NCBI GenBank assembly: GCA_039190745.1
Contig: JBCCXZ010000001.1
Location: forward strand, 64,001-128,000
DNA from: Planctomycetota bacterium
GTDB taxonomy: Bacteria; Planctomycetota; Planctomycetia; Pirellulales; Lacipirellulaceae
Length of the DNA: 64,000 nucleotides
Direction: 5' to 3'
Part shown: piece after piece, positions 10,511 through 63,627 of the stretch
How the letters are laid out: each line of letters opens with the position of its first letter
How positions within the stretch are numbered: position 1 is the first letter of the stretch
The notes under the pieces: generated by a model
Seen by the model: only the letters and a program-made list of their open reading frames with translations
Told to the model about the DNA's origin: nothing
Database searches by the model: none
Translations under genes and position numbers: made by a program

Positions 10511-10533
10511 AGCCGCGTGTCGCCCGGCGGCTA
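10511..10533. repeat. Hairpin repeat family A (degenerate), overlapping the PEP-CTERM stop codon
   Basis: AGCCGCGTGTCGCCCGGCGGCTA shares the GCCCGGCGGCTA 3' half. Confidence 0.55.
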
Positions 10534-11601
10534 CTTCTTGGTGAGCAAACGGCGGGCTCGGCGGCGGGGCGTTGCCGCGGCGACGAGCAGGAGGAGTGCC
10601 GCGGCGGGCTCGGGGACAAGGTGCAGCGTGACGTTGGCGTCGACGGGGAAGAAGTTGTCGGGGTTCCCGCTGGCGTCGGGTTCGAGGTCGAAGCTGAACG
10701 GGCTGCCGTCGGCGAAGAAGCCGGTGAGGGTTTGGTTGCGCTCGGTGAGCTGATAGGGCACGCCGGGGGTGAGGCCGGGGATGGGCTGGCCGTCGAGGAG
10801 GAACTCGGTTCCGAAGAGCTTGATCGGGCTGTTGGGGCCGACGCCTAGTCCGTTGATCGTGCCGCCTGAGATGGTTGACGGGGCGTTTTCCCGGACGAAG
10901 ATGCCGCCGAACTCGCCGCCAGATATGGCGAGGCTTCCATTCGAGATGGTAAGGCCTCCGAAGATGCCGCCCGAGATATCTATGTCGCTGTTGAAGGGTG
11001 AAAAGATAGCCTCAGTGACATTCCCGCCCGTGATTGTGATCTTGCTGGTGAAGGCATCGATGCTCTGGACCTCGCCTGCCGACATTGTGAGATCTGCACC
11101 CAGACCTACGGATACCCTTCCTATTGAACCCCCGGAGATTGCTGCCGAGGTGCCCGGGTTGTCGAATGACGCTGTCGAGACCGTCCCGCCTGAGAGCGTG
11201 AACTGAGCGCCGTCGGTCAGCATGAGAGCCGACTGTACTTCGCCGCCGGAGACGTTGATTGCCGTGCCTTCGGACAGTTCCAACAGGAGAGTGCTAAGGA
11301 TTCCGGACTCGACGTTGATAGTGCTGCCTTCGAAGGCATCGTTGATGCTTAAGTCTCCGCCCTGGAGATTGACCACGATGTTGGTGCCGGGAGCTAATCG
11401 GTCGCCGAGTGTCAGTCGGGCGACGTCGCTCCCCAGGAGGACGTTGAGCGTGGTATCCGATACCAGCGTCGTCCCGTTTGGCACGATGGTCGGCGGCGTG
11501 TCGAAGACGCCGGGGCCGAGCGTTTGGGCCGGTGCGGGGGAGGCGAGCAGCGACGAGACGACGAGCGTGGCGAGCCACGCCGCTTGGCGGGTGTGGTGCA
11601 T
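10531..11601 (-). CDS. PEP-CTERM sorting domain surface protein with Gly-rich beta-helix-like repeats
   Basis: Signal peptide, repeated I/LSGG units, C-terminal VPEP + hydrophobic stretch + Arg cluster. Confidence 0.88.
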   Translation of the reverse strand: MHHTRQAAWLATLVVSSLLASPAPAQTLGPGVFDTPPTIVPNGTTLVSDTTLNVLLGSDVARLTLGDRLAPGTNIVVNLQGGDLSINDAFEGSTINVESGILSTLLLELSEGTAINVSGGEVQSALMLTDGAQFTLSGGTVSTASFDNPGTSAAISGGSIGRVSVGLGADLTMSAGEVQSIDAFTSKITITGGNVTEAIFSPFNSDIDISGGIFGGLTISNGSLAISGGEFGGIFVRENAPSTISGGTINGLGVGPNSPIKLFGTEFLLDGQPIPGLTPGVPYQLTERNQTLTGFFADGSPFSFDLEPDASGNPDNFFPVDANVTLHLVPEPAAALLLLVAAATPRRRARRLLTKK

Positions 11602-11730: not shown

Positions 11731-11933
11731 TTGCGGCTCTTGTCGGAGGCCATTTCTGAGGGCTCTTGGCGGCACTTCAGAAAAAAACTCGCGATTGCCC
11801 AAGATTGCTGGCAGGGGGGCGAAGAGACCTGTGGAAGCCGGGCCCGAGGCTCGGCGGACGTTTGTTTTCATTCGCTTTTTGATGCCCAGGCCCGCCGGCC
11901 GGGCCGGACGCTTTTTCTCGGAGGGCAAGTGCC

Positions 11934-12746
11934 ATGTTTAAGAAGTTGTTTGTGACGGTTTTGGGGACGGGCGTCGTGGCCGGCATGCTGTTCGGCTCGA
12001 GCGCGATGAGCTATCTGGGCACCTCGTGCGAGCGGGTTTCCGACGCGGTCGAAGACAGCGTGCCGGTGGAGTTCCAGATCGACCGGGCACGCAAGATGGT
12101 GCGCGATCTAGAGCCGGAGATCCGGCGTTCGATGCACGTGATCGCCAAGGAAGAGGTGGAGGTGGCTGAGATCCAGAAGCGGATCGCCGCCCGCGAGGAG
12201 AAGGCCGCCAAGGCGAAGGGCGACATCATGAAGCTGCAGGCCGACCTGTCGACGGGCGACACGCGGTTCCGCTACGCGGGGCACACGTACAGCGCCGACG
12301 AGGTGAAGAAGGACCTGGCCCGCCGCTTCGAGCGGTTCAAGACTTCCGACGCAACGCTCGCCAGCCTCCGCGACATGCGGGACGCGCGGCAGCGGAACCT
12401 CGACGCGGCCCGGCAGAAACTCACTGCCATGATGAGCTCGCAGCGTCAGCTCGAGGTGGAGGTGGAGAACCTCGACGCGCAGCTGAAGCTGGTTGAGGTG
12501 GCCGAGGCTTCGAGCGACCTGCAGTTCGACAACAGCCGGCTGGCCCGTGCGAAGAAGCTGATGAGCGACATCCGCACGCGGCTGGACGTGGCCTCGAAGC
12601 TGGCGAACGCCGACACCGAGTTCCACGACGAGATCCAGCTAGACGAGACCGCGCCGGAGGACATCAGCGATCAGGTGGCCGAGTACTTCGGGATCGGCAT
12701 CTCGCTGGACGCGGTTGCAGTGAGCGAGACGAAGACTCGCGAGTAG
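11934..12746 (+). CDS. N-terminally anchored long coiled-coil protein, PspA/IM30-like
   Basis: RBS GGAGG; hydrophobic N-terminus then a nearly continuous heptad-rich helix; first gene of the kinase/ECF operon. Confidence 0.6.
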   Translation: MFKKLFVTVLGTGVVAGMLFGSSAMSYLGTSCERVSDAVEDSVPVEFQIDRARKMVRDLEPEIRRSMHVIAKEEVEVAEIQKRIAAREEKAAKAKGDIMKLQADLSTGDTRFRYAGHTYSADEVKKDLARRFERFKTSDATLASLRDMRDARQRNLDAARQKLTAMMSSQRQLEVEVENLDAQLKLVEVAEASSDLQFDNSRLARAKKLMSDIRTRLDVASKLANADTEFHDEIQLDETAPEDISDQVAEYFGIGISLDAVAVSETKTRE

Positions 12747-12811
12747 AATGCCCTCGTTGACGCCGCGGCGGTTTCGTTCGAGGAGAGCGGGGCTGCCGCG
12801 GCGATTTGTGT

Positions 12812-12842
12812 GAATGACGAAGCACGAATGACGAAGTCCGAA
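12812..12842. repeat. Short tandem repeat
   Basis: GAATGACGAAGCAC GAATGACGAAGTCC GAA. Confidence 0.6.
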
Positions 12843-12896
12843 AAGGCTGGTTGTGGGCCGGCTTCTCTTTAAGGCGGACTTGTTCAGGAGCCTCTT

Positions 12897-14306
12897 GTGA
12901 TGTTGCCCGGTTGGCGTAGGAAGGTCTGGGAGGCGAAGACGGCGGTCCGAGACGGCCGCTGGGACGACGCCGAGCAGCTGTTGAGCCGGGAATCGGTGCG
13001 CGGGTTCCTGCCGGCGAAGAAACTCTCGGACGAGCTGGCGCGTCGACTCGTAGAGCGGTGCGAAGAGCAGCTCGCGGCGGGCGACTGGGTCGCGTCGCTG
13101 CGGAGCGCGGAGCGGGCCGTGTCGCTGGGGTTGGCGGCGGAGGCGCTCGCGGGAGTTCGGGCTCGGCAAGCCGAGCAGGCAGTCGCAGAGCTGAGGGATC
13201 ATCTGATGAGGGGCGACACCGAGGCGGCGTCGCGGCCGATCAAGCGGCTGCGGAAGCACGGGCTGGAGCCCGACCGCACGGCGGGCTGGGCGTTGGTGGT
13301 CGACTTGATCGAACGCGCCCGGGCGGCCGAGGAGGTGGGCGAGGCGTCGCGAGCGGCCGGCTTGCTGGAGCGGGCTGGGCGGGCGGTGCCGGTCGCCGGC
13401 GACCCGTTGGCTGCGGAGATCGACCGGCGGCGTGAGGCGCTGCTGCAAGAAAGCGAACAACTGGGCCGGCTGACGACCGACCTGCACCGGGCGGTGTCGG
13501 GCGAGCGTTGGAGCGACGTGCTGCGGCTGGCGGAGGAAGTGCTAAAATCGGCTCCTCGGCACCCGCAGGCGCGGAAGGCCCGCGACGCGGCGTGGCGTGC
13601 GGTGGGCGTGCAGGCGACGCAGGCGTTTCCGGCGAGGGCCCGCAAGTTGAGCACGCGCGGCCCGCGGCAGGCGAGCAAGCAGGACACGGTGAGCGGCATG
13701 GCGGACCCCGGGCGGCGGATGGTGGCTTGGATCGACTCGGTAGGTTCGTACCTGCTGTGCCTGGCGGACGAGGTGGACCTCGGCCAGCCGTCGGGCCCGG
13801 GCGGGGCGGCGGTTGCTATCTTCGGCGACCTTTCGCGTCGGCACGCATCCATCCGCCGCGAGGGCGAGAGCTACGTCCTCAAGCCGGTGCACAAGGTTTC
13901 GGTCGACGGGCAGCGGATCGCCGGGCCGACCGTTCTGAAACACGATTCGGTGATTCAGCTGGGCGACACGGTGAAGCTGCGGTTCCGGAAGCCGCACGCC
14001 CTGAGTGCGTCGGCGGTGCTCACGTTCGAGTCGCACCACAAGGCCGAGCCCGCTGTGGATGGCGTGGTGTTAATGGCCGAAAGCTGCGTGATCGGCCCGA
14101 AGCCGGTGAGCCACGTGGTTTGCCGGGGCTGGTCGTCGGACGTGGTTTTCTTCCGACGGGGCGATGGCGTGTGCTGCCGGGGGGCCTCGGGCCTGCTGGT
14201 GGACGGCGAGGAAGCCGCAGGCGCATCAGAAATTGCGGACGGAACCCGGATTGAAGGGGAAGATTTCGCGTTATCGATCGAAGAACTGTCTAGTGGGCGG
14301 CCATGA
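12897..14306 (+). CDS. Helical-repeat plus FHA-like domain protein
   Basis: Ala/Arg-rich TPR-like N-terminal half; DLSRRHASI and VIQLGDTVKLRF FHA-type segments; second FHA-like repeat at C-terminus. Confidence 0.75.
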   Translation: MMLPGWRRKVWEAKTAVRDGRWDDAEQLLSRESVRGFLPAKKLSDELARRLVERCEEQLAAGDWVASLRSAERAVSLGLAAEALAGVRARQAEQAVAELRDHLMRGDTEAASRPIKRLRKHGLEPDRTAGWALVVDLIERARAAEEVGEASRAAGLLERAGRAVPVAGDPLAAEIDRRREALLQESEQLGRLTTDLHRAVSGERWSDVLRLAEEVLKSAPRHPQARKARDAAWRAVGVQATQAFPARARKLSTRGPRQASKQDTVSGMADPGRRMVAWIDSVGSYLLCLADEVDLGQPSGPGGAAVAIFGDLSRRHASIRREGESYVLKPVHKVSVDGQRIAGPTVLKHDSVIQLGDTVKLRFRKPHALSASAVLTFESHHKAEPAVDGVVLMAESCVIGPKPVSHVVCRGWSSDVVFFRRGDGVCCRGASGLLVDGEEAAGASEIADGTRIEGEDFALSIEELSSGRP

Positions 14307-14368
14307 CCTGGCGCCTGCACCGCAGTTACAATTGACTACCGCCGCCACCCTCCACTCACGCGAGAGCA

Positions 14369-16348
14369 GTGAACGCACTCCCGACATCGATCGCCATGGA
14401 CCTTCCTCAAGCCGACGCCGACCAAGACGCCCTGACGCAGCGGCCGGCGCGCTTCACGTACCCGAGCGGCTCGAGGCCGCTTGAGGGGTACACGATCAAG
14501 CGCGGTGTCGGGCGGGGCGGGTTCGGTGAGGTGTACTTCGCGGTGAGCGACGCGGGGAAAGAAGTCGCGCTGAAGCTGATCCGTCGGAACCTCGACGTCG
14601 AGCTCCGCGGGGTGACGCAGTGCTTGAACCTGAAGCACCAGAACCTGATCGCGCTGTACGACATCCGCACCGACGACACCGACGACCGGTGGGTGGTGAT
14701 GGAGTTCGTCGCTGGCGAGTCGCTGGAGGACGCGATCGAGCGGCACCCGGAGGGGATGCCCGAGGATTTGCTCGTGAGCTGGTTCGCCGGCGTCTGCAAG
14801 GGCGTGGCCTACCTGCACGACCACGGCATTGTGCACCGCGACCTGAAGCCGGCGAACATCTTTATCGACGACGGCGTGGTGAAGATCGGCGACTACGGGC
14901 TGAGCAAGTTCATCTCGTGCAGCCGGCGGAGCGGGCAGACCGAGAGCGTCGGCACGGTGCACTACATGGCGCCGGAGATCGCTAACGGGCGGTACGGGCG
15001 TGAGATCGACACGTACGCTTTGGGCGTGATGCTCTACGAGATGCTCACCGGCAAGGTGCCGTTCGAGGGCGAGAGCGTCGGCGAGGTGCTGATGAAGCAC
15101 CTGACGGCCGAGGCCGACCTGGCGAGCGTCTCGGAGAACTACCGGGGCATCGTCTCGTCGCTGCTGACCAAAGACCCGGACGCCCGGGTGAAGAACGTCG
15201 GCGAGCTTCTGGAGAAGCTGCCCGAGGGTGTTGCTTCGGGGCCGGCGCGGGTGGTCGATCCCTTGAATCCCGATGCGTCTGCAAAGACGGCTCCGGCGGC
15301 AATGGACGAAGAGCCGATCCTCGCGAGCCTGCGTGCGGGTTGGCGGCACCTGGAAGACAAGTTCCGCACGAACGAGTGGCACCCTGTCTTAAAGGCGATG
15401 GCCGGCGTGGGCATCGTGTTCTTCATGGTGATGGCGACGCCGTTCTCGTTTGGGGCGTTGTTCACGCTTGCATTTGCATACGTGATCTACCGCGGCGTGC
15501 GGTTGGTGGTGCTGCAGCCCGGCAAGCCGCCGATCGCCCAGCCGGCTTCCCAGGCGTCGGCGCCGCTCAAGTCGACGAAGCGCAAAACGCCCGCGCACCT
15601 GAAACGCACTGCGCGGTACCCGCGACGCCGGCACAGCGTGCGGCAGCGGCTGAACGAGCACGTGGCGAACAAGTCGACGCAGGAGCGGCTCACCGAGCTG
15701 TTGGGCGGGATGCTGCTGGCCGCGCTGGTGGCGTCGCTCGCTTCGCTGCTGGTGCTGCCCGGCGCTGCAGACGGCTCGGCCGTCGAGCTGTACGTGTGGG
15801 CCGCGGTGGTGACGACGCTCGCGGCGTGGGCGGCAATGGCGCCGGCGCGGATGATGGAGGGCCGCGTGGAAGACCAGGCGCCGCTCCGCTTCACGCAGAT
15901 GGTGCTCGGAGCAATCGTCGGCGTGGTCGCTTGGGCGCTGGCCGACCTGCTGATGCTTCGCCTGCCGGTGAACAACCAGCTTGAGTTCGGCATGAACCCC
16001 TCCGACACGATTATCTCGGGCAGCATCGGCCAGGGCTTCGGGTACCTAGACAGCTCGCTGGCGGCAGGCTCGGTGGCGGTGCCGCTATCGCTGTTCGCAG
16101 GCTACTTCGCGGGGCTGTTCCTGCTGTACGGCTTCTGGAAGGGCGCCGACTCGATCCGCAGCAGTCGGGTGAGCGTGTGGTCAGTCGCGTGGTGTGTGCT
16201 CGTGGCTTGGTTCTTGCACATCTTCTGGTGGTTCCCGCAGCCGCTGGGCGCGGTGCTCGCTGGGGCGATCGCGTTCACGGTGCAGTTCAGCAGCCCGTGG
16301 ATGCCGCCGAGTCAGCGGCGGAAGCTGGTGGAGGCCGCTGAGCTATGA
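14369..16348 (+). CDS. Hanks-type Ser/Thr protein kinase with multi-pass membrane C-terminus
   Basis: GRGGFGEVY, VALK, HRDLKPAN, KIGDYG, YMAPE; several C-terminal TM helices; alternative ATG at 14396. Confidence 0.93.
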   Translation: MNALPTSIAMDLPQADADQDALTQRPARFTYPSGSRPLEGYTIKRGVGRGGFGEVYFAVSDAGKEVALKLIRRNLDVELRGVTQCLNLKHQNLIALYDIRTDDTDDRWVVMEFVAGESLEDAIERHPEGMPEDLLVSWFAGVCKGVAYLHDHGIVHRDLKPANIFIDDGVVKIGDYGLSKFISCSRRSGQTESVGTVHYMAPEIANGRYGREIDTYALGVMLYEMLTGKVPFEGESVGEVLMKHLTAEADLASVSENYRGIVSSLLTKDPDARVKNVGELLEKLPEGVASGPARVVDPLNPDASAKTAPAAMDEEPILASLRAGWRHLEDKFRTNEWHPVLKAMAGVGIVFFMVMATPFSFGALFTLAFAYVIYRGVRLVVLQPGKPPIAQPASQASAPLKSTKRKTPAHLKRTARYPRRRHSVRQRLNEHVANKSTQERLTELLGGMLLAALVASLASLLVLPGAADGSAVELYVWAAVVTTLAAWAAMAPARMMEGRVEDQAPLRFTQMVLGAIVGVVAWALADLLMLRLPVNNQLEFGMNPSDTIISGSIGQGFGYLDSSLAAGSVAVPLSLFAGYFAGLFLLYGFWKGADSIRSSRVSVWSVAWCVLVAWFLHIFWWFPQPLGAVLAGAIAFTVQFSSPWMPPSQRRKLVEAAEL

Positions 16349-17397
16349 ACGGACTCGCAACCTTGGCCGTGGCGGTCCCGATGGTGGGGGTTTCCCTCGT
16401 CGGCCTGGTCCTGGTCGTGTTTCTGGCTTTGGCTGTGCTCGCGCTGGCCCGAAAACACCCGAAGACGGTGATCTTTGGGGGCCTGCTGTTTGGGGTGCTG
16501 TTGCTGCTGTTCACTTTCGCGGCCCGTGTGAGACACGTGGAGGTGGTCGAGGCTAGGGCGCGAGCCGAGGCCAAAGTCGCCGCTGCGCGGGCTTCTCGTT
16601 CCACGGGGATTCCGACCCCCTTGATCGAAGAGTGGGAGCTGCTGAACAAGCCGGAGATCGAACTGGAAGAGAACGCCGTAGAGCCCACGGTCACCGAGAC
16701 GGCCGCAACCCAAGAGGTTGACGAGGCGAGCGAGCCAGACCAGGCCGAGGAGCCAGGCGAGACCGGTTCCGCCGAAGACGACGCGGCCGAGGCCGAGGAA
16801 ACAGAAACTGAGGCGCCAAGCAGCGAAACGAAGAAGGCCGAAGCGGCTGATCGACGGCCTGAGTGGGTCGACTCCGACTACAAGATGGTCGGGCACGTCG
16901 TGCGGCGGGTGATCCACTCGGGGCCCTACAAGACGGTCGAAGAGTGCCGGCTGGCCCTGGAACCGATGATCGCCGAGGCGGTGCGGAAACGGGTGCGGCG
17001 CCTGGCGACAACCACGCCCGGCTCCGCAACGCACGACGTGCCGCCGGTGAGCGAGATGGGCATCGGGTTGGGCTATATCTTCCGCGACCTGTGCGTGGAC
17101 GACTACGTTGAGGACTACGAAGCTTCAATCGGCGACATGAAGAAGGTGCACGTGCTGATGGAGTTCCGCCCGGCGGAGGACGAGTTCCTGCTCGGCGCGT
17201 ACCAGAAGTACCAGCGGCGGCAGAGCCTTTGGGTGGTGGCGGCGTTTTCCACGCTGGCGGTCTCCGTGGTCGCCGCGGCCTATGGCCTGTTGAAGATCGA
17301 CACTTGGTCGCGGGGCTACTACACACAGCGGTTGCTCCTGGGCGGCGGCGGGGCAATACTGGTTTTGGTCGCGATCGGGATCATGATCGCCCTGTAG
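16345..17397 (+). CDS. Hypothetical membrane protein with acidic extracytoplasmic region
   Basis: ATGA overlap with the kinase stop; N- and C-terminal TM segments; Glu/Ala-rich linker. Confidence 0.7.
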   Translation: MNGLATLAVAVPMVGVSLVGLVLVVFLALAVLALARKHPKTVIFGGLLFGVLLLLFTFAARVRHVEVVEARARAEAKVAAARASRSTGIPTPLIEEWELLNKPEIELEENAVEPTVTETAATQEVDEASEPDQAEEPGETGSAEDDAAEAEETETEAPSSETKKAEAADRRPEWVDSDYKMVGHVVRRVIHSGPYKTVEECRLALEPMIAEAVRKRVRRLATTTPGSATHDVPPVSEMGIGLGYIFRDLCVDDYVEDYEASIGDMKKVHVLMEFRPAEDEFLLGAYQKYQRRQSLWVVAAFSTLAVSVVAAAYGLLKIDTWSRGYYTQRLLLGGGGAILVLVAIGIMIAL

Positions 17398-17506
17398 CCG
17401 CTCTTGGCGATCTCAGCAGCCGCCCTTGGCTGTCTGCGTTGAGGGCCGGACGGGGGCGCCTCGCGGCCGGTTGAACGCACACTGCTCTCTTCGCCGCACG
17501 GAGCCT

Positions 17507-18175
17507 ATGGCCGCACGCATTCAATCATCTGGGCAGCCCAACCCCGATACGCTGCTGGTGGAGGAGATCCGCACCGGGAAGGCCGATGCGTGGAGCGAGT
17601 TGATCGCCCGCTACGAAGGGCGGCTGCTGTCGTTCGTCGAGAGCCGCCTCCGCCGACGGGCGGCGAGCGAGGACGTGGTGCAGGAGACGTTCATCGGCTT
17701 TTTGAACAGCCTGCCGAATTACGACGTGCGGCGTCCGCTGGAAGGGTGGCTGTTTTCGATCGCCGCGCACAAGCTTACCGACCACCTCCGCCGCGAGGGC
17801 CGGCGGCCGACCGTATCGCTCAATGCGGCGGGGGACGACTCCAGCGGCGGCTGGGAGCCGATGGGCTCCGCCTCCCGCGCCAGCAGCATCGCCCGCAGCG
17901 GCGAGCGGCGCGGGCTCGAGGAGGAGGCGCTGGCCGACGCGATCGGGCAGCAGATCGACAAGTGGCGCGACGCGGGCGATTGGCAGAAGGTGCAGTGCAT
18001 GGAGCTGCTGTTCGTGCTCGGTCAGCCGAACAAGGCGGTCGCGGGCGAGCTGGGCCTGAGCGAGCAGCAGGTGGCTAATTTCAAGCATGACTTCCTCGAG
18101 CGGCTCCGCAAGCTGGTGCGGGCTCAGCGGCTGAACGAGGACGTGTTCCCCGAGCTTTCCGGGAGCGGCGGATGA
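17507..18175 (+). CDS. ECF-type RNA polymerase sigma factor (kinase-associated)
   Basis: Region 2 (SEDVVQETF, WLFSIAAHKLTDHLRR) and region 4 HTH (NKAVAGELGLSEQQV); GGAG RBS before 17507. Confidence 0.9.
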   Translation: MAARIQSSGQPNPDTLLVEEIRTGKADAWSELIARYEGRLLSFVESRLRRRAASEDVVQETFIGFLNSLPNYDVRRPLEGWLFSIAAHKLTDHLRREGRRPTVSLNAAGDDSSGGWEPMGSASRASSIARSGERRGLEEEALADAIGQQIDKWRDAGDWQKVQCMELLFVLGQPNKAVAGELGLSEQQVANFKHDFLERLRKLVRAQRLNEDVFPELSGSGG

Positions 18176-18582
18176 GTGAGCCGGTGACCGACGCCGAGCT
18201 GGAGTCGTATCTCGACGAGGCGCTCTCCGAAGGCCGGATGGCCGAGGTCGAGGATTCTTTGCGCGACGAGGAGGGGCTGACTCGGCGTCTGTCGGCGGTG
18301 GCCGGCCGCCGCGACGCGGGCGTGCACTCGTTGGGCGCGGTGTGGCGCCGCCGCCGGCTGAGCTGCCCCACGCGGGAGCAGCTGGGCAGCTATCTCTTGG
18401 GCGTCCTCGAACCGAAACACGCGGCGTACGTGAAGTTCCACGTTGAGCGCGTGGGGTGCCGCTACTGCCGGGCGAGCCTGGCCGACCTGCGTGCGCAGCA
18501 CGAGGCGGAGGAGCAGACCGAGACGGTCACGCGGCGGAAGAAGTATTTTCAGTCGAGCGTGGGGCACTTGGGGGGCGGGTAG
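18172..18582 (+). CDS. Soluble zinc-finger (zf-HC2/ZAS-like) putative anti-sigma protein
   Basis: ATGA overlap with the sigma stop; CPTREQLGSYLLG...FHVERVGCRYC. Confidence 0.7.
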   Translation: MSEPVTDAELESYLDEALSEGRMAEVEDSLRDEEGLTRRLSAVAGRRDAGVHSLGAVWRRRRLSCPTREQLGSYLLGVLEPKHAAYVKFHVERVGCRYCRASLADLRAQHEAEEQTETVTRRKKYFQSSVGHLGGG

Positions 18583-18647: not shown

Positions 18648-19094
18648 TTGCGTTTCAGCACGAGGACACTCCTTGTTGGTGTTGCTGTCGCGGCTGTCTT
18701 GGCCGCTGTCGTCGGTTCTATCTTTCGTTCAGTTGAGAACTCTCTCGGTGCACTCAAAGAGTTCTACGTCCTGGAACAGACTCGAATGATGCTGATTGAA
18801 TTCGTTCAGGAAAACCAAGGAGCATGGCCTTCAGGTTGGGATGACCTGAGTCCCCACTATAGGAAGTACCAGAACCTTGGGTGGTCGCAGAGTCTTGAGT
18901 CACACCAGGAGATGGTTGACGTAGATTTCACGTTCGATCCTGATGGCTATTTCGGTGAGGACACCCGGAAGAACTCGGCTTCGCCACAACTCGTCTTGCT
19001 GAAGTCTCGCTGGCCAGATCTCCATGCGGAAGAAGTCGACGAAATCAACCGTCTGCTTCTTGCGATGTTGCGTTCGATGTACCTGGCGGAGTAG
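18648..19094 (+). CDS. Hypothetical membrane-anchored protein (lower GC)
   Basis: RFSTRTLL + hydrophobic anchor; visibly AT-richer than its neighbours; start uncertain. Confidence 0.6.
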   Translation: MRFSTRTLLVGVAVAAVLAAVVGSIFRSVENSLGALKEFYVLEQTRMMLIEFVQENQGAWPSGWDDLSPHYRKYQNLGWSQSLESHQEMVDVDFTFDPDGYFGEDTRKNSASPQLVLLKSRWPDLHAEEVDEINRLLLAMLRSMYLAE

Positions 19095-19209: not shown

Positions 19210-19548
19210 TCAATCGGTTTTCTCTGGTAGTTCCTCCTCCTCGATATCGAACCGAGACGAGTGGCGGATGCGTAGCACATAGACCGTGCCGCCGTCGATC
19301 GTGAAGAGGATGCGGTGCTTCTGTCGCTTCGCGGTGCGGTAAACGAGTTGCCGCACGTCCATGCTCAGGCGTTCGTTTTCGTGAACAAGCCCGCAGCGCT
19401 CTGGGTTGTTCCGGAGCGAAGCGATTGCTAGCTCGATGCCATCGTTCCAACGCTTGGCGAACGGCTTAGAGTAGTGCTCAGCGTACCAGCAGACGGCGTC
19501 GCGCTGATCTCGCTTCGCAGTGCTGGTGACTTGGAGGACGTAGGTCAT
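19210..19548 (-). CDS. Type II TA toxin, RelE/ParE family
   Basis: TSTAKRD...WY, LRNNPERC, HRILFTI..VYVLRIRHS; overlaps the antitoxin stop. Confidence 0.85.
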   Translation of the reverse strand: MTYVLQVTSTAKRDQRDAVCWYAEHYSKPFAKRWNDGIELAIASLRNNPERCGLVHENERLSMDVRQLVYRTAKRQKHRILFTIDGGTVYVLRIRHSSRFDIEEEELPEKTD

Positions 19549-19781
19549 TCGTCCTTGAGGAAGGGCAGCTCCCGGCGAAGCTCGGCCTGCACCTCTTCGA
19601 AACGCTGAGTGCGGCCGGCCCGCAGGTCGGCGATGCCTTCCTCGATGGCGGCGACCTCTTCGTCTTGGGCTTGCAGCGAACGGATTGCCTGCAGCAGCAC
19701 GTCGGCCTCGGATGCGTACTCGCCCGACGCGACTTTCTGCTTCACGATGCGTTCGACAGGTTCTGGGAGTTCCATGGCCAT
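19545..19781 (-). CDS. Type II TA antitoxin, ParD-like ribbon-helix-helix
   Basis: KVASGEYASEADVLLQAIR, AIEEGIADLRAGR; start 19781 or 19775. Confidence 0.85.
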   Translation of the reverse strand: MAMELPEPVERIVKQKVASGEYASEADVLLQAIRSLQAQDEEVAAIEEGIADLRAGRTQRFEEVQAELRRELPFLKDE

Positions 19782-57541: not shown

Positions 57542-58546
57542 CTAGGCTTGGGTCTGGAGCCATTGGCCCAGTCGTTCCATGCCTTCTCCGGTAGATACAG
57601 TGGGCCGGTACCCGAGGTCGCGTTCTGCGGCGGCGGTGCTGAACCAGTGGCTGTGGGCGAGCTGGGCGGCGAGGAAGCGGGTCATCGGCGGTTCGCTTTT
57701 CAGACCCAGCGTGCGGTAGGCGAGTTCGCAGGCGTGGCCCAGGCGGCTGGCGGTGCTGAGGGAGATCGACTTCTTGACGGGCGGGACATCGGCGAGAGCG
57801 AGGATCTCGTCGATCCACTGCCAGCAGTTCACCGGCTCGGCCTGGGAGATGAAGTACGCCTTGCCGGCTGCGGCAGGGTTTGGGGCGGCGAGTGCGTTGA
57901 TCGCAAACAAGTGCGCAGCGGCGGCGTTCTCGACGTAGACCATCGCCACGCGGTTCGTGCCGTCGCCCACGCGGCGGAGCCGGCCGGACTTCGCGCGAGC
58001 GATGAGTCGGGGGATGAGGTGGTTGTCGCGCGGGCCCCAGATCAGGTGCGGGCGGAGCGCGCAGGTCTTCAGGCCGTCACCATTGGCCACGAGCACCTCG
58101 GCTTCGGCCATCGCCTTCGAGCGGGAGTAGTGGCCGGCGTTTTTGGCGAGCCACTCAGTGCCGTAGGGGACCGACTCGTCGACGCCTTCGTGATCACGGC
58201 CGTCGAACACCACGCTTGGGCTGGAGGTGTAGACCAGCCGGCCGACGCCGTGCTCGCGGCAGGCGGCGAGCACGTTGCGCGTGCCGAGGAGGTTCGTGTC
58301 GTGGTAGGGCTGCCACCGCATGGCGATGCCGGGCAACGCGGCGGTGTGGACGACGCACTCGCAGTCGGCGACCGCTCGGGAGACGGTATCGGCGTCGGTG
58401 ACGTCGCCGCGGACGACCTCGGCGCCGAGCGCTTCCAGCTCCGGGTAGGCGCCACGCGCGAACACGCGCACCGCGTCGCCGCGGGCCAGGAGCTGCTCGA
58501 CGATGTAGCGGCCGAGGAACCCGCCGCCGCCGGTCACGAGAAACAT
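57542..58546 (-). CDS. oleD: NAD(P)-dependent 3-beta-HSD-like reductase, probable OleD
   Basis: TGGGGFLG, YTSSPSVVF, YSRSK, LRPHLIWGPRD, PPMTRFLA; directly downstream of oleC. Confidence 0.8.
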   Translation of the reverse strand: MFLVTGGGGFLGRYIVEQLLARGDAVRVFARGAYPELEALGAEVVRGDVTDADTVSRAVADCECVVHTAALPGIAMRWQPYHDTNLLGTRNVLAACREHGVGRLVYTSSPSVVFDGRDHEGVDESVPYGTEWLAKNAGHYSRSKAMAEAEVLVANGDGLKTCALRPHLIWGPRDNHLIPRLIARAKSGRLRRVGDGTNRVAMVYVENAAAAHLFAINALAAPNPAAAGKAYFISQAEPVNCWQWIDEILALADVPPVKKSISLSTASRLGHACELAYRTLGLKSEPPMTRFLAAQLAHSHWFSTAAAERDLGYRPTVSTGEGMERLGQWLQTQA

Positions 58547-58548
58547 AC

Positions 58549-58585
58549 GATTGCGGATATCGGATTGCGGAATGCGGATTGGAAG
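58549..58585. repeat. Heptamer tandem repeat
   Basis: GATT GCGGATA TCGGATT GCGGAAT GCGGATT GGAAG. Confidence 0.65.
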
Positions 58586-58604
58586 CGGGTGGGGCGTCTC
58601 TTGG

Positions 58605-60344
58605 TCATTTAGCCCCGGGCGACTCGCCCGGGGCTATGTGATTGGAGTACAGCCTGCGGGTCGGATGAGTCTTGGGCCAGTCGTTGGCCAATTCTTTCGC
58701 GGCCCATTCGGCCAGTTGTTCTCGGTTGATCTTCGAGTTGTGGCGTACGTCGACGGGCAGTGATTTACGGATCAAGAACACGTTGATCGACCGTGTGTGC
58801 TCGTGCTGCTCTGCCAACGAGGCGAGTTCTTCCACCAGTGTCGTGCGGATGCTGGATTCTGGTTCCACTACTAACACGGGCGTCTTGCCTTCGGACGGGC
58901 CTGTACCCACCAGCGCGGATCGCTTCACTCTCGGGTGGGTGTTGAAGACCGCTTCGACGGGGATGGTGAAGAGCGTACCCTCCTTTGTCTCGACACGCTG
59001 TGATTTACGGCCGCAGTACCAGAAGTACTCTTGGTCGTCGAAGTAGCCGACGTCGCCCATGCGGTGCCAGACGGCGTTGCCGTCGGCGATCTTCGCCAGG
59101 TCGTTGGCCCGCTCTGCCAAGAGATAGTTCGGGCTTACTTGGGGGGCTCGTACGATCAACTCGCCGATCTCACCCGTTGGCAGCTCCTCCACTTCGCTGA
59201 TGTCCGCGATCGGATCGTCGGTGATGCGAATGACCTTCCACTCTGCCGAGTCGTACTTGCGGCCGACGCAAACGCCGGCGCCCCTGGTGGTCTTCTCGGC
59301 CGTTCCGTTCAGTACTTTCTTGGCTTCGATCGTGGCGACCGGCAGCGCCTCGGTGGCGCCGTAGGGGGTGTGCATTTCCGCCTCGGGGTGGACGCACTGG
59401 AGCGTGCGGTGGAGCACCTCGGCGGGGACTGGCGCGCCGCAGGAGAAGACGCGGCGGAGTGTGGGGATGCTGTCGCCCGTCCGCTCGCAGTGGCGGCTCA
59501 GCTTGTCCCACACCGCGGGGGAGGCGAAGGCGTTGGTCACCCGCCAATCGTTGGCCGCGGCGAGCAGGTTCTTGCACTCGGCCGACGCGGGGCGCGAGAA
59601 GTCCATCTTGGGGAAGACGGTCGTCACTCCCATCGCCGAGTTGAACAGCCCGAACAACGCGAAACAGGAGAGGTCCACCCCGCCGGCGGCGAGGCCGTAC
59701 TGGTGCTGGATGTCGGCCGCTTGCTGGTCGAACATCCGGTGCGTGTAGAGCACGCCCTTGGGCGGGCCGGTGCTGCCGGAGGTGAAGATGATCGCGGCGG
59801 GGGCGTCGGCGGCCGTGGCCGGCAGCGGCGTGGAGGAGTTCATCCCATCGCGGAGCAGTTGGCCATAGGTCGACCCGCCCCAGAACCAGCGGCGGCCGAC
59901 GGTGACGTTCAGCTTGGCTTGGGGGAACCGCTGCCGCAGCACCGTGCGGACCGCCTGGGCGGGGCTGATCGCAACGAAGCCGGCCGGCTCGACCGACGCC
60001 AGGCACCGCAGCAGGTGCTGGCGGCCCATGCCGGGGTCGATCATCACGGTGGTCGCCCCCGAGCGGAGCAGGGCGAACACGAGCTTCACAAACTCCACGC
60101 CCGGCTTCACGAGCAGCGCGAGCCGCGTCTGCGGCGTGACGCCGAGGTCGACCAAACCGCGTGCGAGGGCGGTTGCGTCGCGGTCGAGCTCGGCAAAGGT
60201 ACAGGTGCGGTAAGAGTTGTTGCCCGCGGGTGTGTCCCCGCCGGGGTGCGCAACGGCGATCGCATCGGGCGACGCCGCGGCGACCGCGGCGAGGCGGTCG
60301 GCGACGTTGACGGCAGGGGCTTCGAGGGTCGCGGGGCTGGCCAT
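58605..60344 (-). CDS. oleC: AMP-dependent ligase, probable OleC (beta-lactone synthetase)
   Basis: IDPGMG, IFTSGSTGPPKG, TPYGATEALP, WHRMGD, CGRKS, PVDVRHNSKI. Confidence 0.85.
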   Translation of the reverse strand: MASPATLEAPAVNVADRLAAVAAASPDAIAVAHPGGDTPAGNNSYRTCTFAELDRDATALARGLVDLGVTPQTRLALLVKPGVEFVKLVFALLRSGATTVMIDPGMGRQHLLRCLASVEPAGFVAISPAQAVRTVLRQRFPQAKLNVTVGRRWFWGGSTYGQLLRDGMNSSTPLPATAADAPAAIIFTSGSTGPPKGVLYTHRMFDQQAADIQHQYGLAAGGVDLSCFALFGLFNSAMGVTTVFPKMDFSRPASAECKNLLAAANDWRVTNAFASPAVWDKLSRHCERTGDSIPTLRRVFSCGAPVPAEVLHRTLQCVHPEAEMHTPYGATEALPVATIEAKKVLNGTAEKTTRGAGVCVGRKYDSAEWKVIRITDDPIADISEVEELPTGEIGELIVRAPQVSPNYLLAERANDLAKIADGNAVWHRMGDVGYFDDQEYFWYCGRKSQRVETKEGTLFTIPVEAVFNTHPRVKRSALVGTGPSEGKTPVLVVEPESSIRTTLVEELASLAEQHEHTRSINVFLIRKSLPVDVRHNSKINREQLAEWAAKELANDWPKTHPTRRLYSNHIAPGESPGAK

Positions 60345-60389
60345 CGGGCCATTGTGGCGGATCGGGGCCCCGCCCGCGAGCGGCCTGGT

Positions 60390-60869
60390 CTACATCACCG
60401 AGTCTTTGATTAGCAGCAGCTGCTCACTAGCCATCTGCCCGAACTCTTTGAACGAGATCAGATTCTGCCCGACGCCCTCGTTGACGATGCCCATTTGGCA
60501 GAGGCCGTAGCGGGCCACGGCGAACTGGGCGATTGCCCAGCGGGCGATCGTGAACTGCGCCAGGCTGAACATGCCGATGCCGAACTGGGAGATGTTCACC
60601 AACCCCACCCCGAACTGGCCGATGGCGACTACGCCTTTAGCGACCACCGGCCTGGAACATATCTGGCCCGGTTGCTTGCGGTACTTGAAGGCAATGTGCA
60701 GCAGCGGGATGCCGAAGATTGCGGCCTTCGATTTGTACTCGAAGCCGTAGGAAAGCCGCTTCTTGGCCGGGAGAGCGACCCCACACTGGGGGCAGATGGC
60801 CGCGTTGACGCTCACGCGGTGGTCGCAGTCGCGGCATTGGACCATCTTCGTGGCGGCGGTTGCGGTCAT
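60390..60869 (-). CDS. Zinc-ribbon protein with Gly-rich hydrophobic repeats
   Basis: CRDC/CPQC; EYKSK..FGIPLLHI; repeated xQF units (GQF, SQF, AQF). Confidence 0.7.
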   Translation of the reverse strand: MTATAATKMVQCRDCDHRVSVNAAICPQCGVALPAKKRLSYGFEYKSKAAIFGIPLLHIAFKYRKQPGQICSRPVVAKGVVAIGQFGVGLVNISQFGIGMFSLAQFTIARWAIAQFAVARYGLCQMGIVNEGVGQNLISFKEFGQMASEQLLLIKDSVM

Positions 60870-60964: not shown

Positions 60965-62602
60965 TCAAGTCTCCTGGGGCGGCGTCTGCTGCAAGGGGGC
61001 GCCGTTCTCGGGGACATTCGCGGCCGCTTCGGCGATCTTGGAACTTTTATCGCCTTCTCCGGCAAGTTTTGCCAGCGCTTCCGGGATCTCGACCCCGCCG
61101 ATGTCCCGCATCACCTGCATCATGGGGGGCAGCGTGCCGGCCATGCCGTGCAGGAAGTCGGCCGTGTTGGTGCGTCCGTCCTTGCCGCCGCCGTTCTCCC
61201 AGACGACGACCTTGTCGAACTTGATGTTCGAGATCGCCTGGGCCGACGACTCGGCGAGGTTGTCGAGGTGCTCGAGCATCATGAGCTGGAAGGCCTCGGT
61301 GGCCCCGCCGCAGGCCTCGACGATCTGCTTTAGGCCGTCGCCCTTCTTGGCGAGGATCTCGTACTGACCGCGGGCCTCGGCTTCGAGCTTGGCGTAGATC
61401 GCCGCGGCCTGGCCTTCGGCCTCCAGCCGGCGCTTCTCGGCCTCGGCCTCGGCCTCGACGACGATCTTGGCCTTCTCCGCCTTGGCGGGGGCCTCGAGTT
61501 TGGCACGCTGCTCCGCCTCGACGCGTTGGGCCTCGGCCAGTGCGGCCTTGGCCATCGCGTGGGCCTCCGTCTCCAGCACGGCCGCCTCGGCCTCACGCTT
61601 GCGGGACTCGCCCCGTTCGTAGGCTTCGGACTTCTCGGTGAGCAGCGTCGCCTGCGACTGGGCGACCTTCGCCTCGGCGACGTTCTCGCCGTCGACCGCC
61701 GCGGCGTTCGCCTCGGCGACCGAGATACGCTTCTCACGCTCGGCGTCTTTCACCTGCATCTCGCGTTGGAACTCGGCCGCACGCTCCCCGACGATCTGCT
61801 CTTTGTCGAGCTCCGCCACGCGGACGGCCTGCTCGCGGGCGGCCTCGCGGGTGCCGATCTCGCGGAGCTTCGTGGCGTTGGCGACGGAGACTTCCTTCTC
61901 GCGATTGGCGTCGGCGACGCGGATCTCGCCCTGCTTCTCTTCGTCGGCGACGTCGCCGCGGGCCTGCTGGATCGCCTGCGAGGCGGCCTTCTGGCCGATC
62001 GCGTCGATGTAGCCCGACTCGTCGGTGATGTCGGTGATGTTCACGTTGATCAGCACCAGGCCGATCTTTTTCAGCTCCGGCTCGACCGAGCCCTGGATGT
62101 GCTGCAGGAAGTTGTCGCGGTCACGGTTGATGTCCTCGATCCGCATCGAGGCGATCACCTGGCGGAGCTGGCCGAAGATGATCTCCTCGGCCTGCTGGCG
62201 GATCTCGTCGGTGGTGAGGTCCAGCAGGCGGATGGCGGCGTTGGTCATCACCTCCGGCTGCGTGCCGACGGCGACGGTGAACACGCTGGGGACGTTCACA
62301 CGGATGTTCTCGATGGAGAGCGCGCCGCGGAGGGAGATCTCGATCTGGATCGGTTCGAGGCTGAGGTAGCGGTAGTCTTGGAACAGGGGCCAGACGAACG
62401 AGGCGCCGCCGTGCACGGTCTTGGCGGCCGAGCCCTTGGCGGTCTTACCGAAGATCACCAGCACCTGGTTGGACGAGCAGCGTTTATAGTTGCTCTTCAG
62501 CAAGATTATCGTGGAGAAGAACGAGATCACGATCAGGCCGGCGAGCACGGCGAGCCAAAACATAGTGGCGCCGGTCACTTCGGCGAGCAGGAGCATCGGC
62601 AT
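60965..62602 (-). CDS. Flotillin/SPFH (band 7) family protein
   Basis: N-terminal TM, GGASFVWP, GQLRQVIASM, NVNITDI, AEA-rich coiled coil. Confidence 0.92.
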   Translation of the reverse strand: MPMLLLAEVTGATMFWLAVLAGLIVISFFSTIILLKSNYKRCSSNQVLVIFGKTAKGSAAKTVHGGASFVWPLFQDYRYLSLEPIQIEISLRGALSIENIRVNVPSVFTVAVGTQPEVMTNAAIRLLDLTTDEIRQQAEEIIFGQLRQVIASMRIEDINRDRDNFLQHIQGSVEPELKKIGLVLINVNITDITDESGYIDAIGQKAASQAIQQARGDVADEEKQGEIRVADANREKEVSVANATKLREIGTREAAREQAVRVAELDKEQIVGERAAEFQREMQVKDAEREKRISVAEANAAAVDGENVAEAKVAQSQATLLTEKSEAYERGESRKREAEAAVLETEAHAMAKAALAEAQRVEAEQRAKLEAPAKAEKAKIVVEAEAEAEKRRLEAEGQAAAIYAKLEAEARGQYEILAKKGDGLKQIVEACGGATEAFQLMMLEHLDNLAESSAQAISNIKFDKVVVWENGGGKDGRTNTADFLHGMAGTLPPMMQVMRDIGGVEIPEALAKLAGEGDKSSKIAEAAANVPENGAPLQQTPPQET

Positions 62603-62763
62603 CGGTTTATCCCCCGTTGTTGGTGACGTTCGTTTCGTGTGGGTGTATCGGTGGCGTCGCCCGTCGGAGCGGGCGCGCGGAGTCGCTCCGCAAACATAGC
62701 TCGCGTCCGTGCTACCGCGGGGACCGCCCGAGGCGGCGCGGCCGCTACAACCGCTCCCAGCGG

Positions 62764-63426
62764 TCAGACTTCAGCGACTGATCGGGCCCGGCGGACGCGG
62801 AGCGTGTCCGTGCCGACGATCTCGACCACTTCGACGGTCTCGCCTGTCTTGAGCGGCTCGGCGTCGTCGGTTACCGCAGCGTACTCGACGATGCGGTTCT
62901 GCATTGTGAGCTGGACCTTCCCCACGCCGCCGTCGCCGGCGGGGACGGGGATGTAGACGGTAGCTTCTTTGCCGCGGGCCAAGCCGATCCGCTGGTTGCC
63001 CGAGGAGGTGAGCTTCGAGATCGACAGCATCAGCCAGTACATGCCGTACATGGCGGCGAGGCCGACGGCCGAAGCGATCACCAGCGAGACGCCCTGGGCG
63101 TAGCCGGCGGAGGTGCAGGCCTTGCCGGCGATACCGAAGAAGGCGAGCGCCGCGATAATCGTGCGGAACGAGACCACGCCGAACAGCCAGGAGCTTTGGG
63201 CGGCTTGGTACTCGGCGTCGGCGGCGGTGCGGAGCGAGGTGTCGTGGTCGCCGGCGATGTCGACGTCGCCAAAGTCAGCGTCCCCGCCGATGTCTGCGCC
63301 GCCGTCGAAATCATCGACGCCCAGGTCGGAGCCGTCCTCACCCATGCCGAGCAGGGTCATCAGGAATTGGCACACCATGACGGTCCCGCCGATGACCGCC
63401 GCGACTAAGAAGATCAAATCCAGCAT
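62764..63426 (-). CDS. NfeD-like membrane protein (flotillin partner)
   Basis: TM helices, Asp-rich loop, C-terminal OB-fold-like region (GKEATVYIPVP..GKVQL). Confidence 0.8.
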   Translation of the reverse strand: MLDLIFLVAAVIGGTVMVCQFLMTLLGMGEDGSDLGVDDFDGGADIGGDADFGDVDIAGDHDTSLRTAADAEYQAAQSSWLFGVVSFRTIIAALAFFGIAGKACTSAGYAQGVSLVIASAVGLAAMYGMYWLMLSISKLTSSGNQRIGLARGKEATVYIPVPAGDGGVGKVQLTMQNRIVEYAAVTDDAEPLKTGETVEVVEIVGTDTLRVRRARSVAEV

Positions 63427-63627
63427 CGATCGCGTCCCCCGTTGACCGCTTGGATAAATCGAACGCCTCCCGCTCCGTGTGACGTTGATTGTAGCGTGCT
63501 CGCCGCGTTCCTTGCGCAGAAACCCGGCGGCGGGAGCGGTGTTCTGTGTGAGTTTGGTTCGCTGGTACTTCGCCGGAGCGGGCGGGATCTTGCCCGGAAT
63601 CCCAACCGGGAATTGCCCTGTTTACAG

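Follow-up and report, generated by a model that had tools for sequence, protein, structure and literature searches.

A conserved ECF61 sigma factor operon of Planctomycetia with a predicted zinc-binding anti-sigma factor, a membrane kinase, and a candidate membrane-protection regulon

The sequence analysed was a 64,000-nt window of Planctomycetota bacterium (Lacipirellulaceae; assembly GCA_039190745.1, contig JBCCXZ010000001.1), and the locus in question was a six-gene operon at window positions 11934-18582, encoding in this order a coiled-coil protein, an FHA protein, a Ser/Thr kinase with a C-terminal membrane domain, a membrane protein, an extracytoplasmic function (ECF) sigma factor of group ECF61, and a soluble zinc protein (Table 1). 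This module is core to the class Planctomycetia and nearly universal there. It is fairly probable that its ECF61 sigma factor, held by the zinc protein as an anti-sigma factor and released via the membrane kinase, controls a regulon for membrane protection to which its own operon belongs.

Distribution and gene order

The sigma factor, the zinc protein, and the coiled-coil protein were searched for in 151 genomes from class Planctomycetia. The sigma factor was found in 146/151 genomes (one match each at E<=1e-25), the zinc protein also in 146/151 (one copy each), and the coiled-coil protein in 140/151 (mostly single copy); four of the five missing genomes were common to the sigma factor and the zinc protein. 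Three genomes (G318, G326, and G201; 97-100% complete) had none of the three proteins at this search depth, a deeper search of these near-complete genomes gave no sigma orthologue (best E 1e-19 to 3e-18), and they are natural losses of the module. The remaining genome missed by the sigma search only (99% complete) carried a frameshifted ECF61 orthologue in three pieces (G261:C1:5511327-5511959), representing an assembly error or a pseudogene.

Gene order was compared in 101 loci, namely the window plus 100 of the 145 other sigma loci, hand-chosen with regard to family spread and to the length of the contig; kin are not independent, and thus the distribution counts are not statistical tests. 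The order classes included (i) the full six-gene order in 43 loci, (ii) only the zinc gene missing in 9, (iii) kinase-membrane-sigma, with neither the coiled-coil nor the FHA gene, in 11, (iv) sigma-zinc in 13, and (v) sigma alone in 17; the kinase-membrane-sigma order was present in 70/101 loci. Since the same full order recurs in 43/101 loci from 14 families, the six-gene arrangement is not due to chance, and the conserved neighbourhood that the earlier note had proposed to look for was indeed there. Among the 138 genomes with both genes, the coiled-coil gene lay co-directional and at most 20 kb upstream of the sigma gene in 69 and on a different contig in 53 others. The block of coiled-coil, FHA, kinase, and membrane genes was intact in 11/20 hand-picked coiled-coil loci unlinked from sigma.

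In other classes, 29 loci were picked by their zinc-protein match, a selection by which they give no phylum-wide frequencies, and 24 of them had a sigma orthologue. Their usual order was FHA-membrane-kinase-sigma-zinc-coiled coil: among the 24 loci, the kinase gene was adjacent or next-but-one to the sigma gene in 23, the coiled-coil gene lay within the locus in 16 (mostly directly behind the zinc gene), and the sigma factor and zinc protein formed one fused open reading frame (ORF) in 9.

Two lineage-specific arrangements were also seen. A lineage comprising L127-L129 and relatives (genera g224 and g246) kept the sigma-zinc pair, and the coiled-coil protein was not found there with this query. 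In one family, a second Ser/Thr kinase gene (~850 aa) lay convergent to and right after the zinc gene at 14 loci (L067, L069, L071-L075, L079-L081, and L083-L086).

ECF61 sigma factor

Group ECF61 reportedly originated from Jogler et al. 2012. The window sigma factor was 53% identical over 209 aa to OJW24604.1; in a search of this genome with OJW24604.1 it was the sole strong match (E 1e-53; next match 2e-5), and OJW24604.1 fell in the same 90% cluster as the sigma factor of the six-gene locus L071. The passages of two papers that treat the group describe it as six planctomycete proteins, usually with a kinase of at least five helices at position -2 and a promoter 'not conserved' (PMC7826278), and give OJW24604.1 as the model protein of a group listed as phosphorylation-regulated (PMC8999054). 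By sequence, the window sigma factor is an orthologue of this model protein, which bears on the ECF group classification proposed in the earlier note; it shared with ECF61 sequence kinship, planctomycete restriction (among the best 24 loci listed), and the kinase at -2. Among the matches listed from a scan of the genome collection, the closest named relative was a Bythopirellula protein (73% identity), and 23 of the best 24 loci listed (29-73% identity, E<=7e-16) were titled Planctomycetota. A record titled 'uncultured Chitinophaga sp.' (L227) carried a 47% identical sigma factor and is possibly a mislabelled bin.

The acidic residues of region 2.2 were kept (E/D at 55 in 96% and D56 in 100% of 101 orthologues; E55-D56 here) and aligned with the AED of sigmaW. 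Region 4 of the window sigma factor had no Pfam sigma-4 match, and the linker serines were conserved: S126 in 98%, S127 (S/T) in 99%, and S131 in 92%. The ECF43 systems EcfP-PknT and EcfK-PknS likewise have an ECF sigma factor beside a membrane Ser/Thr kinase, but according to the relevant passages the acidic DAED motif is missing from the ECF43 sigma factors, which become active only on phosphorylation at that place and work without an anti-sigma factor (PMC8999054, PMC8103513). Unlike them, the window sigma factor keeps the acidic motif rather than neutral Ser/Thr and has a conserved zinc partner. EcfP-type direct activation by region-2.2 phosphorylation was rejected as the main model owing to these retained acidic residues.

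Zinc protein as predicted anti-sigma factor

The zinc protein carried the site C65-x24-H90-x5-C96-x2-C99, and its four ligands were invariant in 59/59 orthologues. The zinc site of ZAS anti-sigma factors is spaced C-x(23-26)-H-x3-C-x2-C; the C-H-C-C site was the same here, but the His-Cys gap was 5, not 3. The Pfam zf-HC2 match was weak (41/59 orthologues at E<=0.05). The modelled sigma/zinc-protein complex scored 0.83 vs 0.00 for the best of three controls, with at least 85% of contacts agreeing between runs and a partner pLDDT (predicted local distance difference test) of at least 88; the mark that it passed was reached by 116/157 solved complexes and 2/215 mismatched pairs, counts that are only rough for the alignments used.

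The modelled interface comprised region 2 (sigma residues 55, 59, 62, 63, and 66) and residues 138-173, and the zinc protein is thus predicted to bind both sigma domains, the core-binding helix included. Region 2.2 binds core polymerase, and the zinc protein would occlude core binding by the sigma factor. Overall, the soluble ZAS-type zinc protein is predicted to be an anti-sigma factor, and its action on the sigma factor, as the earlier note had it, gained support from one-to-one co-occurrence, sigma-zinc fusions, and the complex model. A Ser/Thr pair before hydrophobic residues was found at the C-terminus in 48/59 class members and 21/24 other-class members (loose pattern); it is a guess that this conserved Ser-Ser/Thr (S128/S129 here) serves as a kinase phosphosite.

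The most confident modelled contacts were all with sigma residues 142-171, which would also suit a split sigma factor, in which the zinc protein is an activating second subunit propping the divergent region 4, a role that the C-terminal extension of the fused proteins may have in other classes, and the kinase phosphorylates the Ser-rich linker. The fusion in 9/24 other-class loci, the region 4 without a Pfam sigma-4 match, the conserved linker serines, and the ECF61 entry among phosphorylation-regulated groups (as listed in part of PMC8999054) agree with such an arrangement. It is nonetheless unlikely: the model also puts the zinc protein on region-2.2 residues, the C-H-C-C site and the zf-HC2 match are typical of anti-sigma factors, and the linker serines may merely cap a helix.

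Promoter-like motif and predicted regulon

De novo Gibbs sampling of the 300-base regions that precede 57 orthologous coiled-coil genes gave the motif ccAA(T/G)A(A/T)-N14-CGAA, with 21.9 bits vs 10 for shuffles. With a matrix built from regex-selected sites in all 57 regions and a threshold of 13 bits, leave-one-out scores reached at least 13 bits in 53/57 of these regions; in a held-out set of the 20 coiled-coil loci unlinked from sigma, 18/20 reached the threshold vs 0/20 in each of four spacer-shift controls. The motif was thus retained when the sigma gene lay elsewhere, which speaks for the coiled-coil gene as the likely output, as first proposed from the window. A motif of at least 13 bits was also present upstream of 25/69 kinase genes, 13/71 membrane genes, and 7/54 FHA genes. 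A sigma70-type promoter scan upstream of the operon found nothing.

This genome had 8 sites of at least 19 bits vs 1 in each spacer control, and they preceded (i) lemA plus an M48 peptidase gene, (ii) two SPFH genes, (iii) the operon itself, (iv) genes for 159-aa, AAA/TPR, and 141-aa proteins, and (v) one unclear target. One SPFH target lay in the window: a gene for a 220-aa membrane protein (no Pfam match; presumably NfeD-like), followed by an SPFH gene (Pfam Band_7, E 2e-28).

Footprinting was done on the best 30 loci per gene, each set including this genome. For lemA, the motif was found in 12/30 loci (spacer controls 0, 0, 1, and 0; reverse strand 0); for the SPFH operon, represented by orthologues of the 220-aa gene, it was found in 19/30 (spacer controls 0, 0, 2, and 2; reverse strand 1). 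For the other SPFH gene preceded by a strong site (G000 C71), none of 100 genomes gave an orthologue at E<=1e-40, and the site near the NfeD-NfeD-floA genes lay 570 bases upstream, inside another ORF. SPFH/lemA windows of at least 13 bits numbered 0/25 in the three sigma-less genomes vs 2/7 in two sigma-bearing genomes, a weak comparison because many of these windows do not belong to orthologues of the genes used for footprinting. A membrane-repair regulon extending beyond the operon and covering the coiled-coil gene, the SPFH operon, and lemA is likely on these motif data; the identical motif ahead of SPFH and lemA genes bears out the membrane-stress theme of the earlier note. A 'self-contained' module, as had been proposed, is not supported, the predicted regulon lying outside the operon and the operon being split in many lineages.

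The second site in the window, before the 159-aa protein gene (two CxxC pairs), was followed by genes for an AMP-binding enzyme and a 3-beta-HSD-type reductase, all located after the SPFH gene, and these genes may belong to the regulon. A 17.8-bit site preceded a signal peptidase I gene (L297:555-2534, G000 C11). Strong motif sites stood ahead of lemA (L325 and L328) in the g224/g246 lineage.

The motif had C in 98% and G in 98% at the CG of CGAA, and the invariant sigma residue D92 aligned with RpoE Asn84. An Asp at the Asn84 position selects CG at -13/-12 (0.62 of activity; PMC7776599 Dataset S3, the part that covers this position). The position of D92, with Asp selecting CG there, links the motif to the window sigma factor. 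In the region-4 register that we take to apply (A190 = RpoE Arg171 and N191 = Ser172), A190 predicts G/T at -31, where T60 and G38 were seen.

Because the motif goes with the coiled-coil, kinase, and membrane genes and not with sigma, the sigma/anti-sigma pair could also be conceived as a switch of the SigR-RsrA type that responds to redox state or to zinc, the kinase, membrane, FHA, and coiled-coil genes being regulon output rather than input. The soluble four-ligand zinc site fits this arrangement, as do the 11/20 split loci where these four genes lie together away from sigma and the archaeal ESCRT-III loci that also have kinases and FHA proteins without sigma factors (a passage of PMC10936438). 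Against it, 11 loci keep kinase-membrane-sigma without the coiled coil or FHA, the kinase stands beside sigma in 23/24 other-class loci, and no thiol-redox genes were among the annotated top motif matches; the switch is rated slightly below the split sigma factor and is likewise improbable.

Coiled-coil protein

The AlphaFold model of the coiled-coil protein (57 sequences, pLDDT 80) comprised helices 3-19, 22-57, and 59-106, a beta-hairpin at 111-120, and helices 121-196, 202-232, and 244-251, i.e. a hydrophobic N-terminal helix of low confidence, a long hairpin tipped by a beta-hairpin, and two shorter helices. The helix order fitted that of PspA/Vipp1/IM30 (alpha0, long alpha1-alpha2/3 hairpin, alpha4, and short alpha5, with a conserved Pro at the alpha1 start), but the window protein lay below the Pfam cut-off and had a more hydrophobic N-terminus and a beta-hairpin insert at the hairpin tip.

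Structure searches were as follows: (i) Foldseek against PDB placed Vipp1/PspA entries at all of ranks 1-10 over 214-239 columns, with no match at E<=0.001 (best E 1.4e-3, high root-mean-square deviation); (ii) VIA-align gave Vipp1 7o3w Z 11.5 (root-mean-square deviation 3.5, 156 aligned) and PI3K iSH2/Smc hairpins up to Z 12.4, i.e. no discrimination; and (iii) ESM Atlas returned unnamed planctomycete clusters, with a PspA cluster in row 5 (TM 0.47, under the naming bar). Profile comparison by hhalign with 23 canonical PspA proteins of the phylum gave P 59.6 locally; the deeper alignment (102 sequences) gave P 29 locally and 74.6 globally over 205 colinear columns. The global score was 33.1 vs 8.8 for the reversed profile and at most 22.9 in 40 shuffles, and the local margin was thin (31.7 vs 28.3). 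A hidden Markov model search was run on the genome ORFs, to which the 23 PspA proteins and their reversed sequences had been added; PspA proteins came out at ranks 2, 4, 8, 15, and 37, and the top 45 contained no reversed sequence. PF04012 had no match in the coiled-coil protein or in this genome (95% complete) and matched 4/57 orthologues at E<=0.01; Pfam, NCBIfam, and PDB sequence searches of the first gene gave generic coiled-coil matches only. It is rather likely that the coiled-coil protein is a divergent PspA/Vipp1 (ESCRT-III) relative: of the 'PspA-like' label in the earlier note, helix order and top Foldseek rows are in favour, while a significant match and a PF04012 match are lacking, leaving the label unproven.

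Those same searches leave a small chance that the coiled-coil protein is a lineage-specific hairpin unrelated to PspA and that the module serves housekeeping, e.g. budding or cell-cycle membrane growth. The missing Pfam PspA match, the missing Foldseek match at E<=0.001, the Smc and PI3K iSH2 hairpins in the top VIA-align rows (Z 12.4; Vipp1 11.5), and the near-universal single copy would fit, as would one Planctomycetia family that also carries a canonical PspA elsewhere. This possibility appears remote in view of the ten best Foldseek rows, all Vipp1/PspA (225-239 aligned columns), the colinear global profile match exceeding its reversed and shuffled controls (33.1 vs 8.8 and at most 22.9), and the co-regulated SPFH and LemA/M48 genes.

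An RNA hairpin stood just after the coiled-coil gene (Table 1). Values of z<=-2 were found after 36/57 orthologous coiled-coil genes, as against 5-13 of 55-60 for each of the five remaining genes, and the hairpin is probably a leaky terminator or a stabiliser favouring the mRNA of the first gene.

Kinase, membrane protein, and FHA protein

The kinase was of the Hanks type, with K60, H147, R148, D149, K151, N154, D166, and E194, as well as K-P-x-N and the activation-loop Thr, each kept in 70/70 orthologues; its C-terminal membrane domain had five hydrophobic segments here and at least four in 51/70 orthologues (by a crude hydropathy window), and no convincing Pfam family was found for this domain in the 29 members scanned. 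The membrane protein was poorly conserved save for a C-terminal hairpin motif, GYxRxDxATxGYYTxRL. It shared no Pfam family across 64 orthologues, had unnamed planctomycetal look-alikes in the Atlas, and occurred without the kinase in none of the loci examined; it is likely a kinase partner. The acidic sensing partner proposed in the earlier note was abandoned: the acidic stretch was unconserved, and the net charge of the orthologues was near zero.

The FHA protein was soluble (model pLDDT 91.8), with N-terminal helical repeats that many orthologues lack and an all-beta C-terminus, in which a non-canonical FHA domain is joined by a second beta unit of FHA size; its best matches were EmbR, EssC FHA, and kinesin-3 FHA, the last being the best PDB sequence match. 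Canonical pThr-binding FHA domains have the motifs G-R, S-x-x-H, and S-x-N-G. Among 55 orthologues, G295 was kept in 53, S312 in 42, and H315 in 50, and position 296 was Gln in 25 (as here) and Arg in 22; S-x-x-H was thus kept, the Arg was a minority residue, and there was no conserved S-x-N. With the pThr-binding Arg in 22/55 and four loci having the rest of the upstream block and no FHA gene, a phospho-adaptor role, which the earlier note had assigned, is not supported, and the FHA protein probably acts as an accessory scaffold rather than an obligatory relay.

Proposed circuit and points against it

In the proposed circuit, a zinc-finger-type partner would hold the ECF61 sigma factor inactive, and the kinase with its membrane partner would sense bilayer stress. 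Upon membrane damage, the kinase would phosphorylate the anti-sigma factor (candidate S128/S129) and release the sigma factor; phosphorylation of the anti-sigma factor, not activation of the sigma factor in the EcfP way, is proposed because the sigma factor keeps its acidic region-2.2 residues. The freed sigma factor would transcribe the regulon from AA(T/G)A(A/T)-N14-CGAA promoters, and the product of the first gene would be a membrane-anchored PspA/ESCRT-III-like polymer, presumably made in excess of the regulators because the hairpin follows its gene.

Several points weigh against this circuit. As for linkage, the sigma and zinc genes lay away from the kinase gene in 30/101 loci (about a third), and the zinc gene was unlinked from sigma in all but 3 of 35 sampled loci of two families; the kinase link to the sigma factor or the anti-sigma factor is itself a proposal. 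As for the proteins, solved sigma/ZAS complexes exist, and thus the pass of the complex model may come from likeness to them; the PspA kinship is below significance in Foldseek and VIA-align. As for the promoter, (i) the motif was directly upstream of only 1/101 sigma genes and 1/59 zinc genes, so that a sigma gene outside the operon would not be autoregulated; (ii) N191, in the register given above, predicts A at -34, where C was commonest (69%); (iii) the acidic residue tied to -11A is Gly in the window sigma factor; (iv) the simple pattern was enriched genome-wide only modestly, 1.6-fold, over its spacer+1 form (215 vs 133 matches in 61 genomes); (v) the matrix reached at least 13 bits near the coiled-coil gene in just 1/16 other-class loci (L181-L205); and (vi) one of many other ECF sigma factors could read the motif.

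Locus features and neighbouring genes

All six ORFs lay on the plus strand over the whole span, as read from the ORF list and the sequence, so that the six co-directional genes of the earlier note were confirmed, and the kinase, ECF sigma, and FHA identities were supported by Pfam and NCBIfam (Table 1). The ATG at 17507 as sigma start has an upstream GGAG and agrees with orthologue lengths. Translational coupling holds in part: four-base ATGA overlaps were read at 16345-16348 (kinase/membrane) and 18172-18175 (sigma/zinc), but tight spacing was not general, gaps of at most 30 bases being found in 26/59 sigma/zinc pairs and 15/69 kinase/membrane pairs (start calls rough).

The neighbouring genes were (i) a divergent gene for a secreted-looking repeat protein, whose C-terminus (VPEP, hydrophobic stretch, and basic tail) we take to be PEP-CTERM-like, and which has a 330-base intergenic region in common with the ECF-type motif; (ii) an ORF of lower GC content directly 3' of the operon; and (iii) a ParE-family toxin gene with a 78-aa upstream partner, forming a ParDE-type toxin-antitoxin pair.

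Table 1. Features of the operon, its predicted regulatory sites, and its surroundings (window positions)
Feature	Position	Strand	Remarks
Coiled-coil gene	11934-12746	+	270 aa, hydrophobic N-terminal helix
FHA protein gene	12897/12900-14306	+	Pfam FHA E 9e-7
Kinase gene	14369/14396-16348	+	Pfam Pkinase E 7e-54
Membrane protein gene	16345-17397	+	4 hydrophobic segments
ECF sigma gene	17426/17507-18175	+	Pfam sigma region 2, E 2e-15
Zinc protein gene	18172-18582	+	weak Pfam zf-HC2, E 0.03
RNA hairpin, 19 pairs	12761-12803	+	just after coiled-coil gene; intergenic z -3.7
Predicted ECF61 promoter	11799-11830	+	CCAAGAT (-35-like), 14 bases, CGAA (-10-like); 135 bases upstream of first gene; 19.1 bits
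Weaker internal motif copy ahead of kinase gene	14258-14289	+	15.7 bits
Regulon candidate	60968-63593	-	20.0-bit site from 63593; 220-aa membrane protein 62767-63426, then SPFH/Band_7 protein 60968-62602
Second site	61041	-	24.3 bits, before 159-aa protein 60393-60869
Genes behind second site	57545-60869	-	159-aa protein, AMP-binding enzyme, 3-beta-HSD-type reductase
Divergent repeat-protein gene	10531-11601	-	356 aa, secreted-looking; no Pfam match
ORF 3' of operon	18648-19094	+	148 aa, lower GC; no Pfam or NCBIfam match
ParE-family toxin gene	19213-19781	-	Pfam E 3e-10

Discussion

The sigmaW factor is held by the membrane anti-sigma factor RsiW and freed by proteolysis; in the circuit proposed here, by contrast, a soluble partner is combined with a kinase as membrane input. 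The window sigma factor resembled sigmaW in the xxED motif, in the Asp found where RpoE has Asn84, and in a similar loop of region 2.3, and the PspA-like and SPFH/flotillin targets predicted for it recall those of the ECF sigma factor sigmaW in membrane stress, Bacillus subtilis sigmaW controlling pspA (pspA-ydjGHI), floA, and floT (in the relevant part of PMC8581546). In Mycobacterium tuberculosis, the kinase PknB phosphorylates the anti-sigma factors RseA and RshA (passages of PMC10027907 and PMC13147305). According to the same passages, SigE-RseA-PknB and SigH-RshA-PknB likewise combine a soluble anti-sigma factor with Ser/Thr kinase input in surface stress, with Psp downstream (via ClgR). 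PknB, however, is a PASTA kinase that acts globally, crosses the membrane once, and has its gene elsewhere. In the present module, the kinase is a dedicated multi-pass one, the kinase, membrane partner, FHA protein, and PspA-like gene stand in one operon, and the phosphorylation target is a candidate. By analogy, the proposed circuit would be, with somewhat better than even confidence, a blend of sigmaW (targets) and SigE-RseA-PknB (logic).

A full-text literature search found no paper on the operon, its anti-sigma factor, its promoter, or its regulon, although Jogler 2012, Wiegand 2020, and Iyer 2020 or their supplements may contain the gene arrangement or the promoter. Term searches of the main texts of two phage shock protein surveys gave no mention of Planctomycetes (PMC11237479, PMC9239133); the module was not described in the pertinent passages of an ESCRT survey (PMC10936438) and a planctomycete kinase paper, and the portions of the Todor et al. 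supplements at hand held no Planctomycete terms. The earlier note had known of no characterised system of this combination, which agrees with the literature search, but the core of sigma factor plus kinase is the named genomic group ECF61. Like that group, the module has a planctomycete ECF sigma factor with a kinase of at least five membrane helices at -2; unlike its description in the relevant passages of PMC7826278, it comes with a conserved motif, a predicted regulon, a partner of the ZAS type, and four more genes that are conserved. ECF61 is known as a group from genomics only; the regulation (zinc partner and motif) and output proposed here are new. According to the passage on kinase-linked ECF groups, these have no anti-sigma factors except ECF267 (PMC7826278), and the zinc partner challenges this published rule. 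Now that a promoter sequence, a list of targets, and a candidate inhibitor are available, the module lends itself to direct tests in genetically tractable species.

The inner membranes of planctomycetes are elaborate, and dozens of their ECF sigma factors have no assigned function. If the first gene product is truly ESCRT-III-like, it would represent a divergent, membrane-anchored branch of the superfamily in genomes without a detected PspA, like this one. A bolder and doubtful extension would be that most Planctomycetia carry an overlooked membrane-anchored ESCRT-III-like protein under a kinase-anti-sigma-ECF61 circuit, which would also control LemA/M48 and flotillin-type genes, as the core membrane-remodelling programme of the phylum; if true, this programme would give ECF61 its first function and its first anti-sigma factor, and it would be a candidate for shaping the invaginated inner membranes and for FtsZ-independent budding.

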